DNA of 64,000 nucleotides from Escherichia phage ECO111 5-P, in sequence record OR844765. One strand, 5' to 3'. Below the pieces are notes generated by a model, which did not search any database, was not told where the DNA came from, and was given only the letters and a program-made list of their open reading frames with translations. Made by a program: the position numbers and the translations under genes. This document shows, piece by piece, positions 20,128-21,288 of this stretch; the first letter of the stretch is position 1, and each line of letters begins with the position of its first letter.

Positions 20128-21288
20128 ATGAATACTTTTAAAATCGGAACGAATTTTGATTTAGCTCTTCTTGATAAAATCGTAGAGCTCAATAAAACCT
20201 ATCCTAATAGCTTGATAAACGAAGTATATGGCTCTACAAGAGAAATGGCTTTTGTAGCAGCCAGACCTGATTTTAGGCTTCCTGACGTTGACAAAAAGAT
20301 GTTAGAAGACTACGTTAAACGTTGTAACGAATTAGGTATTTGCTTTAACTATACACTCAACACGATAAATCCTGGTTCAAAAAGAGAACTAGTTGAGTGG
20401 AAGAAGAAAGCTATTCAGGATTATGTTCAGTATCTTTGGTCAATAGGCGTATGGCGTATTACTATCGCTAACCCTGTTGTTATGGAAATTGTTCGTGAAG
20501 TCAATAAAGACATTGAGATTGAAGTTTCAACAATTCTACATGTCGATGCTGTAACTCAAATCAAATACTTGCATGACCAATATAATATCAAAAAGGTCTG
20601 CTGTGGAATTCATAAGAACCGTTCAGTTTCTTTCCTGAAGCGTGCAGCAGAGTTTTGTAATAAGAACAATATAATATTTGAAGTTCTTGTAAATGAGTTC
20701 TGTTCTAATGCTGGTAAAGGGTATACAACACATTGTAGCTATCGTGACTCTTGCTATATTTTCCATAGTACTGATGTTACAGCTGATGATGCTAAATCCT
20801 TAAACGGATATCCTATGCAGCACTGTATTAAAGCTCGTGATACAGACCCATTTAACTGGTTGAGAACTCGTTTTGTTCGTCCTCAAGATTTGAAACTTTA
20901 TAATGATATTGGTATCACTCAATTCAAAGTTTCAGGACGTACAGGTAGCACAGACTACATTTTGAAAGTTCTTGAAGCATACGCTTCTGAAAAGTTTGAA
21001 GGTAATTTGTTAGAACTGTGGAAGCCTTTAGAGACTATTTTCACTCTTGAAAATGAGACTGAGTTTTCACATACAGTAAATATTGAAACCTCTTTGTTAG
21101 ATGGCTTTTTAGAAAAAAGGTGGTTCAGACATCCAGATTTTGATTGTGCTAATGAAATCTGTGGGTCAACGTGTACATATTGTGAAAGGTATTATAAACG
21201 TCAATTATCTAAAAACGGGTTAGCAGAAAACTCCATATCTATTATTGATATAACTAACTCTGATGACGCTTTGAGGTACCCGGAATGA
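20128..21288 (+). CDS. Cysteine-rich protein, possibly peptidase-U32-family-like (Fe-S TIM-barrel)
   Basis: 386 aa; Cys clusters NEFCSNAG...HCSYRDSC and CANEICGSTCTYC; IANPVVMEIVRE and EVLVNEFC resemble U32 signature blocks; assignment is tentative. Confidence 0.5.
   Translation: MNTFKIGTNFDLALLDKIVELNKTYPNSLINEVYGSTREMAFVAARPDFRLPDVDKKMLEDYVKRCNELGICFNYTLNTINPGSKRELVEWKKKAIQDYVQYLWSIGVWRITIANPVVMEIVREVNKDIEIEVSTILHVDAVTQIKYLHDQYNIKKVCCGIHKNRSVSFLKRAAEFCNKNNIIFEVLVNEFCSNAGKGYTTHCSYRDSCYIFHSTDVTADDAKSLNGYPMQHCIKARDTDPFNWLRTRFVRPQDLKLYNDIGITQFKVSGRTGSTDYILKVLEAYASEKFEGNLLELWKPLETIFTLENETEFSHTVNIETSLLDGFLEKRWFRHPDFDCANEICGSTCTYCERYYKRQLSKNGLAENSISIIDITNSDDALRYPE

Follow-up and report, generated by a model that had tools for sequence, protein, structure and literature searches.

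Escherichia phage ECO111 5-P, an RB69-like Mosigvirus, carries a gene that is the ortholog of RB69 gp50 and encodes a divergent U32-family protein. We consider it probable (at roughly 0.6) that this protein, gp50, uses prephenate instead of O2 to hydroxylate a deoxycytidine nucleotide at C5, as an alternative to gp48, the thymidylate-synthase (TS) homolog encoded nearby. The analysis established to which family the protein belongs, how well its cysteines are conserved, which genes surround it and how it is distributed phylogenetically. The substrate, the oxygen donor, the independence of O2 and the presence of Fe-S clusters are inferred from these comparisons. In the literature searched (He et al. 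2026, Nat Chem Biol; Mahler et al. 2025, Cell Host Microbe, lay outside its scope) no prior link of gp50 to U32 hydroxylases, prephenate or anaerobiosis was found. The window, i.e. the whole stretch of phage DNA that was analysed, is 64 kb long.

The gene extends from 20128 to 21288 on the + strand. Its ATG-initiated reading frame translates into 386 amino acids, and the translation and the cysteine clusters agree with an earlier note on this DNA, which had described a cysteine-rich protein with U32-like signature blocks. The note had named two findings that would refute its reading, the lack of a significant profile match and cysteines that vary among homologs, and neither was obtained. A search of Pfam yielded a significant U32 profile match: PF01136 (Peptidase_U32) matched residues 94-286 with E=7.3e-11 and 42.2 bits (curated gathering cut-off 22.4). 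Among the matches listed, 117 of 120 gp50 homologs have a precomputed PF01136 match, and the 386-residue protein was assigned to phrog_5757. The AF2 model (pLDDT 93.6) has the TIM barrel fold seen in the U32 protein Mk0906 (5d88), the only solved U32 structure. Mk0906 was also the closest PDB structure in a Foldseek search with the model (E=5e-7, target TM-score 0.66). When the PDB was searched by sequence alone, nothing matched.

The protein could be placed in none of the characterised U32 subfamilies. The C-terminal domains of RlhA and TrhP (DUF3656 and the U32 C-terminal domain, respectively) were not found, PF01136 being the sole Pfam match at E<=1. An NCBIfam search returned no TrhP or RlhA match, and the protein is much shorter than RlhA (653 aa) and TrhP (453 aa). 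The UbiU and UbiV subfamilies did not accommodate it either; the score of 18.5 bits with the quinone_UbiU equivalog, whose cut-off is 440, puts it outside the UbiU subfamily. The same gene occupies the same position in RB69 (gp50) and in phage HY126 (XAN60477.1), and at least 99% identity to the 386-residue protein was found in 133 phage records. Across genera the U32 protein, at 82-89% identity, is the best conserved of the cassette; the proven hydroxylase, the TS homolog, shows 72-82%. The dN/dS of the U32 gene is 0.02-0.07. A search for the subfamily yielded 1708 clusters at 50% identity. Long homologs were screened for 'Rosetta stone' domain fusions, and none was informative; one of them contains an intein.

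The cysteines are clustered: C192, C203 and C209 (NEFC...HC...DSC) are followed by C233 and by a C-terminal group, C340/C345/C349/C352 (CANEICGSTCTYC). A comparison of 121 homologs, the most distant at 48% identity, showed nine invariant cysteines (C158, C192, C203, C209, C233, C340, C345, C349 and C352) and a tenth, C177, that is conserved in 98%. The block 'IANPVVMEIVRE' aligns to 'SDPGLIMLVRE' of TrhP, and 'FKVSGRTG' aligns to the KIEGR block of UbiU, RlhA and TrhP (KxxGR: K267, G270, R271), K267 and R271 being invariant in 131 distant representatives. The strict PROSITE-style pattern E-x-F-x2-G-[SA]-[LIVM]-C-x4-G-x-C has no literal match in the protein. If E185 is taken as the anchor, C192 comes one residue early, and C209 can be the second Cys only past a 10-residue insertion that holds C203.

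In the alignment with UbiU, RlhA and TrhP only two of the four canonical Fe-S cysteines have a counterpart in gp50: C209 matches C176/177, and C192 is displaced by one column from C169/170. Canonical cysteines 3 and 4 are missing. The invariant C203 and C233 appear to be their replacements and, to judge from sequence, are candidate cluster ligands. The C-terminal four-Cys motif comes in addition to these U32-type cysteines. We predict one or more [4Fe-4S] clusters in the protein.

The surroundings of the gene agree with the view of the earlier note that it lies inside a DNA-modification cassette. All genes of the cassette are on the + strand. UDP-arabinose genes stand upstream: an arabinose-5-phosphate isomerase (SIS domain, PF01380; 17182-17817), which catalyses the first step of UDP-arabinose supply, a bifunctional nucleotidyltransferase/kinase of the AfhE type for UDP-arabinose synthesis (PF00483 and kinase-like matches; 17999-19684) and a HAD-type phosphatase of the AfhF type (TIGR01689 match; 19669-20070) (PMC13326640). 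The U32 gene is followed by orf79, by the TS homolog of the RB69 gp48 type (PF00303; 21567-22283), a flavin/O2-dependent 5-hydroxy-dCMP synthase (PMC13326640), by the gene of DNA arabinosyltransferase 1 (RB69 gp46:47 type, phrog_3891, E=3e-156; 22283-23182) and by a thymidylate-kinase-like nucleotide kinase of the RB69 gp45 type (23183-23731). The last two assignments follow Table 1 of PMC13326640; the kinase gave weak P-loop matches, and its homologs, detected with jackhmmer, also accompany U32 in unrelated phages. A promoter-like site (TTTAAA-16-TATAAT; 20044-20071, + strand), a consensus match only, is located just upstream of the U32 gene; the number of promoter-type sites around the gene was not above that expected from shuffled sequence.

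The start of orf79 (79 aa, phrog_8601; 21285-21524) overlaps the U32 stop codon. This small gene, which gave no Pfam, NCBIfam or custom-HMM match, evolves fast and is truncated in HY126. It occupies the slot after U32 where most other genera have a chorismate mutase gene. We considered whether orf79 might be a degenerate chorismate mutase and rejected this: it has no PF01817 match, it lacks the catalytic residues, and phages of Yersinia, Pectobacterium and Serratia carry both an orf79 homolog and a chorismate mutase.

The DNA of RB69-like phages contains arabinosyl-5-hydroxycytosine, and gp48 makes 5-hydroxy-dCMP by using flavin and O2 (PMC13326640). The TS homolog of the window is 97.9% identical to its match in HY126, a phage whose homologous TS-type enzyme has been characterised (PMC13326640). 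Since the TS homolog and the dNMP kinase are enough for production of 5-hydroxycytosine in aerobic E. coli (PMC13326640), the U32 enzyme must be dispensable in air. The earlier note had suggested an 'extra' hydroxylation step. The base in these phages is 5-hydroxycytosine rather than hydroxymethylcytosine (PMC13326640), so hydroxylation by the U32 enzyme is probably not an additional step; it seems to be a second way, without O2, of reaching the 5-OH group introduced by the TS homolog.

U32 homologs also occur in loci of other types. In 18 of 26 clusters the homolog is accompanied by a phrog_3891 glycosyltransferase (arabinosyltransferase-1 family) and usually by a TMK-like kinase as well. About 810 kb of such loci (about 10 kb on either side of the gene) contained no TS homolog of the gp48 type, and the 25 non-T4 clusters have no gp48-type partner nearby. 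This we read as U32 taking the place of the TS homolog. On one 44-kb contig (L037), three glycosyltransferase-like genes flank the U32 gene, and no TS homolog was detected locally, with about 5 kb beyond the locus scanned. In another locus (L031) a canonical ThyA-like gene is found near the U32 homolog. There are minimal operons of kinase, glycosyltransferase and U32, which lack sugar-activation genes. In cellular genomes the U32 homolog comes after a guanylate-kinase/SAM-methyltransferase fusion, again a nucleotide kinase combined with an enzyme capable, potentially, of derivatising a hydroxyl group. Recurrent partners of U32 are nucleotide kinases and chorismate mutase or DAHP synthase.

These shikimate-pathway enzymes bear on the proposed oxygen donor, prephenate being the product of chorismate mutase. 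In T4-like phages a gene for chorismate mutase type II lies between U32 and the TS homolog in at least 51 records belonging to 12 name groups. Its product matches PF01817 with E values of 1e-10 to 1e-11 and retains the residues R11, R28, K39, E52, S84 and Q88 (PheA numbering), which we take to be the active-site residues of AroQ chorismate mutases. Where checked, the start of the gene overlaps the U32 stop codon. It follows U32, or U32 and orf79, in Winklervirus, Kanagawavirus, Klebsiella, Yersinia, Proteus and other phages, and the phage records found to have this chorismate mutase were all from T4-like phages of this U32 type. Nowhere within the 64-kb window of ECO111 5-P is there a chorismate mutase gene, so the U32 enzyme of this Mosigvirus would need prephenate made by PheA and TyrA of the host.

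Outside the T4-like phages, a standalone CM_2 gene follows the U32 homolog directly in L046, L049 and L056 (Pfam) and in L051, L052, L057, L073 and L075 (our own profile searches). Fusions of DAHP synthase and chorismate mutase flank the homolog in L040, L043 and L054 (Pfam) and in L041 and L044 (our own searches), and in L011 and L029 the gene after it codes for a DAHP synthase. Several of the DAHP_synth_1 neighbours are fused to CM_2. The possibility that such a neighbour is a KDO-8-P synthase of a sugar pathway was rejected for L011, where DAHP models scored 216-237 bits and KDO8P synthase 63. Altogether, shikimate genes adjoin U32 in 7 of the 26 U32 clusters (70% identity), and the lineages outside T4 are independent.

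The distribution of the U32 gene was compared with the oxygen use of the hosts. The gene is present in 221 phage records, whose hosts are all Enterobacterales or Shewanella. It is absent from all 57 Acinetobacter and all 20 Rhizobium phage records, despite the presence of the TS homolog and identical synteny (e.g. the Acinetobacter Lazarusvirus locus L014). The Agrobacterium and Pseudomonas phage records examined likewise had the TS homolog and identical synteny, and none had U32. The type with U32 only was found in MAGs or isolates of Lachnospiraceae, Romboutsia, Erysipelotrichales, Phocaeicola, Bacillota and BRC1. Overall, phages of strict aerobes lack the gene, the majority of phages of facultative anaerobes carry it, and in anaerobe-associated contigs it stands alone. 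Record counts (176 vs 136) indicate about 40 Escherichia phage records with the TS homolog and without U32; the one locus of this kind that was examined is that of Dhakavirus VR5. Because of these records the correlation with host oxygen is one-directional and phylogenetically clustered.

All characterised U32 members have been tied to prephenate-dependent, O2-independent hydroxylations (PMC5727448, PMC6599085, PMC10990095). By analogy, a deoxycytidine nucleotide, most likely dCMP, would be hydroxylated at C5 by gp50 in the absence of O2. Prephenate would donate the oxygen atom and depart as phenylpyruvate and CO2, and the predicted [4Fe-4S] cluster(s) would take away two electrons. The resulting 5-hydroxy-dCMP would enter the known pathway of kinase, polymerase and arabinosyltransferases. 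A phage of this type would then possess two isofunctional hydroxylases: the TS homolog (flavin/O2) for use in air and the U32 enzyme for use in the anoxic gut.

Other functions can be envisaged for gp50. The study that left it uncharacterised gave it the tentative label 'sugar or heterocycle reductase', and a role in which it assists the TS-homolog hydroxylase by electron transfer or reduction, e.g. as a donor of Fe-S electrons to the loosely bound flavin, would fit this label as well as the need of the gp48 flavin for a reductant (PMC13326640). The U32 gene is two genes upstream of that of the flavin enzyme, and about ten conserved cysteines are enough for two clusters. Nevertheless, we regard such a role as quite unlikely: gp48 and the kinase function in E. 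coli without gp50 (PMC13326640), Acinetobacter phages use gp48-type enzymes without U32, the non-T4 clusters have no gp48-type enzyme that could be served, and the chorismate mutase and DAHP synthase neighbours would be left unexplained. Hydroxylation of residual unmodified C in the phage DNA after incorporation, as RlhA and TrhP act on RNA, would be compatible with everything that supports prephenate-dependent hydroxylation, and the known U32 nucleic-acid enzymes do work on polymers (PMC5727448, PMC6599085). This reading is unlikely in view of the architecture of gp50, which has PF01136 alone, without the C-terminal domains by which RlhA and TrhP bind RNA or the ribosome. In T4-type phages cytosine is modified at the dNMP level, and the constant partners of U32 (dNMP-type kinases, dCMP deaminase, dUTPase, NT5C and dNK) point to mononucleotide chemistry.

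A sugar-tailoring step, also raised in the earlier note, would consist of oxidation, epimerisation or dehydration of arabinose or UDP-arabinose, for example. We think it very improbable. RB69 and DLP3 DNA share plain arabinosyl chains, and the gp76-83 cluster of the Acinetobacter phage DLP3 makes these chains without a U32 gene (PMC13326640). The position of the U32 gene directly after three UDP-arabinose genes, its co-occurrence with SIS and nucleotidyltransferase/kinase genes in several unrelated phages and the TIM barrel, a common fold in sugar enzymes, would suit such a step; however, the minimal operons dispense with sugar activation, cassettes of the methyltransferase type are devoid of sugar genes, and no U32 protein is known to have a sugar substrate. 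Hardly credible, in our opinion, is an RNA hydroxylase (ho5U in tRNA, ho5C in rRNA) tuning translation, or a genuine collagenase-type peptidase. TrhP and RlhA, the characterised relatives, have RNA substrates and T4-like phages encode tRNAs, but gp50 lacks an RNA-binding extension, and E. coli already has both TrhP and RlhA. As for a peptidase, GenBank and other databases label the gene 'peptidase' or 'collagenase-like protease', yet there is no established catalytic mechanism for peptidase activity in U32 proteins (PMC5727448). Against both speaks the location of the gene within a DNA-modification cassette in every lineage examined. The profile match and the conserved cysteines favour the reading, advanced in the earlier note as well, that gp50 is a U32-type Fe-S hydroxylase in a phage DNA-modification locus.

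O2-independent hydroxylation by gp50 would account for the ability of gut-bacterial phages with arabinosyl-5-hydroxycytosine to make their protective DNA without O2, the only known route to 5-hydroxycytosine being O2-dependent. It would add DNA precursors to RNA and quinones as substrates of U32/prephenate hydroxylation, would bring this chemistry into viruses, and would assign a defined role, supply of the oxygen donor for DNA modification, to phage-borne chorismate mutase and DAHP synthase. More tentatively, it seems quite possible that the subfamily represents the main, perhaps ancestral, prephenate-using C5 hydroxylation of deoxypyrimidine nucleotides in phages of anaerobes, that gut and subsurface viromes owe to it a large, unexplored class of 5-hydroxypyrimidine DNA, O-glycosylated and perhaps also O-methylated, with shikimate genes carried to fuel the modification, and that the enterobacterial T-even relatives keep both hydroxylases. 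Many uncultured phages of anaerobes would then be predicted to have glycosylated or methylated 5-hydroxypyrimidines, which would bear on sequencing, restriction, CRISPR targeting and phage therapy. Direct hydroxylase activity has been reconstituted in vitro for no U32 protein, and the chemistry of the family is unsolved (PMC10990095). A small soluble nucleotide as substrate could allow the first such reconstitution with gp50; a soluble dCMP enzyme of this size would be much easier to work with than ribosome precursors, tRNA or membrane quinones.

Of the known systems, RlhA (YdcP) offers a close chemical parallel. With its U32 catalytic domain it converts cytosine to exactly 5-hydroxycytosine, at C2501 of E. 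coli 23S rRNA. The reaction has a genetic requirement for prephenate and for Fe-S cluster biogenesis, and additional C-terminal cysteines are needed as well (PMC5727448). The same conversion at cytosine C5 is proposed here for gp50, which, too, has an additional C-terminal four-Cys motif. RlhA differs in its length, in the possession of DUF3656 and in its substrate, a ribosome assembly intermediate; gp50 shares only two of the four canonical U32 cysteines, and a deoxynucleotide substrate is suggested by the genes next to it. The division of labour proposed for gp48 and gp50 resembles the E. coli pairs TrhP/TrhO (tRNA U34) and UbiU-UbiV/UbiI-H-F (ubiquinone), where an O2-dependent enzyme and a prephenate-dependent, O2-independent U32 enzyme yield one product (PMC6599085, PMC10990095). 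In these systems aerobes have the O2 enzyme only, facultative organisms both and anaerobes the U32 enzyme only, the same three-way spread as in the phages (PMC6599085, PMC10990095). The phage system is viral and differs in that the O2-using partner is a flavin-binding TS homolog, that the proposed substrate is a DNA precursor and that in many lineages the phage itself encodes chorismate mutase or DAHP synthase. A precedent for the presence of an aerobic and an anaerobic enzyme for the same DNA-precursor step in T-even phages is provided by the ribonucleotide reductases NrdAB and NrdDG of T4, although their families and chemistry are unrelated to those of gp48 and gp50.

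The 386-amino-acid open reading frame at 20128-21288(+) is clean, and its sequence is the one quoted in the earlier note, which had described a cysteine-rich protein with U32-like blocks in a modification cassette, tentatively a U32 member that could add a hydroxylation or sugar-tailoring step. The family assignment was borne out by the Pfam Peptidase_U32 profile (E=7.3e-11, 42.2 bits against a cut-off of 22.4), and the top solved-structure match of the AlphaFold model (pLDDT 93.6, built on 76 homologs) was Mk0906, a U32 protein (PDB 5d88). Both the observation and the assignment stand. 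Profile, fold and KxxGR motif place the phage protein in the U32 superfamily; it falls outside the RlhA, TrhP, UbiU and UbiV subfamilies. C-terminal domains are lacking, NCBIfam scores fall far short of the cut-offs, and the arrangement of cysteines is altered. The gene is already known, and is annotated 'peptidase'.

The source phage is T4-like, of the RB69 group (Mosigvirus), and the 7 kb around the U32 gene are 98% identical to PhAPEC2 and about 150 other phage records, chiefly Escherichia/Shigella. Upstream lie genes for DNA polymerase (14430-17141), an arabinose-5-phosphate isomerase with a SIS domain (17182-17817), a nucleotidyltransferase/kinase (17999-19684) and a HAD phosphatase (19669-20070). 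Downstream follow orf79, a 79-aa open reading frame (21285-21524(+)), the thymidylate synthase (TS) homolog (21567-22283; 97.9% identical to its HY126 match), a 299-aa glycosyltransferase (22283-23182), a 182-aa thymidylate-kinase-like kinase of the RB69 gp45 type (23183-23731(+)) and UvsX (23830-25002). A sigma-70-like promoter match, TTTAAA-16-TATAAT (20044-20071(+), 10/12 positions), reaches as far as the stop codon of the HAD gene, leaving 57 nt to the U32 start codon. U32 may thus be transcribed from a promoter of its own, but matches of this kind are no commoner in the region than expected by chance.

The cysteines on which the earlier reading leaned proved to be conserved: across 121 family members with identities as low as 48%, nine cysteines never vary (C158, C192, C203, C209, C233, C340, C345, C349, C352), while C177 is retained in 98%. 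When the phage protein was aligned with UbiU, UbiV, RlhA and TrhP of E. coli (taken from the K-12 genome), the correspondence to the canonical cluster cysteines held for the first two positions, C192 lying one column off the first and C209 at the second, and failed for the third and fourth, which are missing from the phage protein. From the alignment, C203, located in a short insertion, and C233 would be the obvious substitutes. The 'FKVSGRTG' block aligns with the KIEGR block in all four E. coli proteins. Among 131 more distant full-length representatives C192, C233, K267, R271 and Y285 are nearly or fully invariant, and the four C-terminal cysteines are kept in about 85%. The conserved cysteines are sufficient in number for two clusters, and we infer that they bind Fe-S. 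One 699-aa subfamily member (P0184) contains an intein, with Hint and Intein_splicing domains, which lies between two U32-profile stretches, upstream of the one starting at profile position 193, near conserved cysteines. Inteins usually occur in essential replication or nucleotide-metabolism enzymes.

[quoted passage not shown] RB69 gp50, the ortholog of the U32 protein, appears there as a table entry only ('sugar or heterocycle reductase', structural match 5d88); the paper gives it no discussion, and its text nowhere uses the terms U32, RlhA, TrhP, peptidase or hydroxylase (PMC13326640). In E. coli, 5-hydroxycytidine at C2501 of 23S rRNA requires RlhA, which in turn depends on the synthesis of prephenate, on the biogenesis of Fe-S clusters and on conserved cysteines (PMC5727448). 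Without O2, ho5U34 in tRNA is formed via the prephenate-dependent TrhP, and with O2 this modification is made by the unrelated TrhO; anaerobes possess the TrhP type alone, aerobes TrhO alone, and facultative organisms both (PMC6599085). Prephenate is the oxygen donor in UbiU/UbiV-dependent anaerobic ubiquinone hydroxylation, and the authors proposed this as a general U32 property; in vitro reconstitution has not yet been achieved for any U32 hydroxylase (PMC10990095).

The reading that we favour, with a probability of about 0.6, is that the phage protein is a U32-type Fe-S enzyme acting as an O2-independent, prephenate-dependent C5 hydroxylase of a deoxycytidine nucleotide, the anaerobic counterpart of gp48. 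The substrate would probably be dCMP, prephenate would donate the oxygen, and the product would enter the established route through kinase, polymerase and arabinosyltransferases; the flavin/O2 enzyme encoded two genes downstream would be the one whose reaction is matched without O2. The whole functional case is deduced from sequence, predicted structure, gene neighbourhoods and phylogenetic spread.

Hundreds of homologs (~360 aa, 44-58% identity) were found in metagenomes, on contigs that are phage-like and not T4-like (DnaE-type polymerases, SSB, terminase, lysis genes). On these contigs the neighbours of U32 include genes for thymidylate-kinase-like kinases, dCMP deaminase, dUTPase, NUDIX, 5'-nucleotidase and deoxynucleoside kinase. 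A set of 52 IMG/VR and 7 GTDB loci was annotated by BLAST, jackhmmer and curated profiles. The 300-aa protein beside U32 in most loci belongs to phrog_3891, as does the glycosyltransferase of the window (RB69 arabinosyltransferase 1). Clustering of the U32 proteins at 70% identity gave 26 groups, one of them formed by the T4-like phages; the phrog_3891 glycosyltransferase is adjacent in 18 groups and shikimate-pathway genes in seven. No gp48-type TS homolog was found in ~810 kb of non-T4 loci, where a canonical ThyA-like gene is present in one locus and ThyX in one. Several loci have a minimal operon of kinase, glycosyltransferase and U32. In other modified-DNA phages the gene accompanying the kinase and the base glycosyltransferases codes for the enzyme creating the hydroxyl acceptor; by this analogy, the place of that enzyme is held in these loci by the U32 protein.

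On the ~44-kb phage contig L037, U32 is flanked by a DXD glycosyltransferase, a kinase, the phrog_3891 glycosyltransferase and a weak TET-associated-glycosyltransferase match, which suggests multi-sugar modification on a U32-made hydroxyl group; three glycosyltransferase-like genes lie around U32, including 7575-8423 and 11086-11979. In unrelated phages, homologs of the gp45-type kinase (L012, L032, L036, L037, L042, L045, L058) accompany both the U32 homolog and the phrog_3891 glycosyltransferase, and in some loci the kinase and glycosyltransferase searches match an open reading frame with the same start (e.g. L038, L047, L053, L060), which may be a fusion. This kinase may be dedicated to the hydroxylated dNMP, although the published work used a T4 gp1-type kinase.

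According to Pfam, a standalone chorismate mutase (CM_2) gene lies directly 3' of U32 in L046, L049 and L056; custom profile searches located one directly after U32 also in L051, L052, L057, L073 and L075. DAHP synthase/chorismate mutase fusions flank U32 in L040 (8411-9433), L043 (7302-8357) and L054 (11079-12197) by Pfam, and in L041 and L044 by custom searches. DAHP synthase alone follows U32 in L011 (11145-11891) and L029 (9384-10130); the L011 protein was rejected as a KDO8P synthase, its match to DAHP synthase models being far better. The shikimate-pathway genes beside the U32 homolog are apparently dedicated to a DNA-modification module.

Among the T4-like phages, LC53 of Serratia and Entb_45 of Enterobacter have a gene annotated chorismate mutase immediately 3' of U32, its start overlapping the U32 stop codon. 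Pfam CM_2 recognized both proteins above cut-off (E=1.7e-11 and 2.4e-10), NCBIfam concurred, and PheA residues R11, R28, K39, E52, S84 and Q88 are retained in the phage chorismate mutases. By tblastn this type was detected in 51 phage records (Klebsiella, Serratia, Yersinia, Enterobacter, Edwardsiella, Erwinia, Pectobacterium, Shewanella, Providencia, Morganella, Kosakonia and Escherichia phages), adjoining the TS homolog and the U32 'peptidase' wherever annotation was shown; Proteus phages have more divergent copies. The product of chorismate mutase is prephenate. No chorismate mutase was found anywhere within the 64-kb window, so Mosigviruses would depend on host prephenate, as do E. coli's own U32 enzymes.

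In the window the place directly after U32, where most other genera have chorismate mutase, is occupied by orf79 (phrog_8601), which is translationally coupled to the U32 gene, its start overlapping the U32 stop codon as that of chorismate mutase does elsewhere. It is not the chorismate mutase, being a different protein with no profile match and without the catalytic residues. Both genes are present in Yersinia, Pectobacterium and Serratia phages; in genera with both, orf79 lies between U32 and chorismate mutase. Its rate of evolution is well above that of the adjacent genes, with identities within Mosigviruses ranging from 70 to 100%. Some phages have a broken or shortened copy: certain records match in two separate pieces, and the HY126 annotation is only 40 aa long.

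A conserved four-gene cassette consisting of GP88, a guanylate-kinase/SAM-methyltransferase fusion, an unknown ~270-aa protein and a U32 homolog was found at L074:3044-7137, L072:6929-11086 and L002:5135-9098, the last with the methyltransferase only, without the guanylate-kinase fusion. Its carriers are a Phocaeicola faecalis isolate, a BRC1 MAG and Firmicutes-type contigs. Here too U32 is accompanied by a nucleotide kinase, together with an enzyme that could modify a hydroxyl group; by analogy with TrhP and TrmR in tRNA, the product might be 5-methoxy-pyrimidine nucleotides. The region downstream, L002:9116-15428 (also L003, L070), codes for a 5'-nucleotidase, an NMN-transporter-like protein, a deoxynucleoside kinase, a radical SAM/SPASM protein, a second, very divergent U32-like protein and a nucleoside deoxyribosyltransferase-like protein, and looks like a larger nucleoside-modification island.

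U32 was found in 221 phage records, with hosts all in Enterobacterales or Shewanella, which are facultative anaerobes. The gp48-type TS homolog was found in 373 records, including 57 Acinetobacter and 20 Rhizobium phages as well as Agrobacterium and Pseudomonas phages, and not one of the records from these four host genera has U32. In one Acinetobacter Lazarusvirus the cassette is syntenic, with the HAD gene directly abutting the TS homolog. GTDB assemblies with the U32-only type belong to Erysipelotrichales, Bacillota, Lachnospiraceae, Romboutsia (two), Phocaeicola faecalis and a groundwater BRC1 bacterium, all of them anaerobic lineages. This oxygen distribution supports the model imperfectly, about 40 Escherichia phage records (from counts of 176 vs 136) having the TS homolog without U32; it is suggestive, not statistical, since the groups are phylogenetically clustered. 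In Dhakavirus VR5 (L013), the one such Escherichia locus looked at, 4385-8589 carries TS homolog, kinase, HAD and nucleotidyltransferase genes without U32 or chorismate mutase. If the model is true, VR5-like phages would be unable to make 5hoC without oxygen, and would provide a natural control.

Of the cassette proteins, U32 is the best conserved between T4-like genera (82-89% identity, dN 0.09-0.14, dN/dS 0.02-0.07); the corresponding values for the TS homolog, a proven hydroxylase, are 72-82% and dN 0.14-0.24. Within Mosigviruses U32 identity is at least 99% in 133 records. The conservation and low dN/dS therefore point to strong constraint, even where chorismate mutase is absent.

Other roles were weighed against the same evidence. 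The main sub-variant, in which U32 acts on DNA rather than on the mononucleotide, is unlikely, and a function as reductase partner for gp48 is a little less likely again; sugar tailoring we regard as improbable, and an RNA hydroxylase or peptidase as very improbable. Each of them leaves unexplained at least one of three findings, namely that chorismate mutase and DAHP synthase genes adjoin U32, that modules with U32 alone exist, and that Acinetobacter phages making the same sugar chain lack U32.

In the literature accessible to us there was no earlier mention of the proposed hydroxylase function, of the phage chorismate mutase/DAHP synthase link or of the U32-only modules, and prior discussion is possible. 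In its proposed chemistry the phage U32 protein resembles RlhA, and in its proposed physiological logic TrhP or UbiUV; the three-way oxygen pattern of TrhO and TrhP is the same as the distribution of gp48 and U32.
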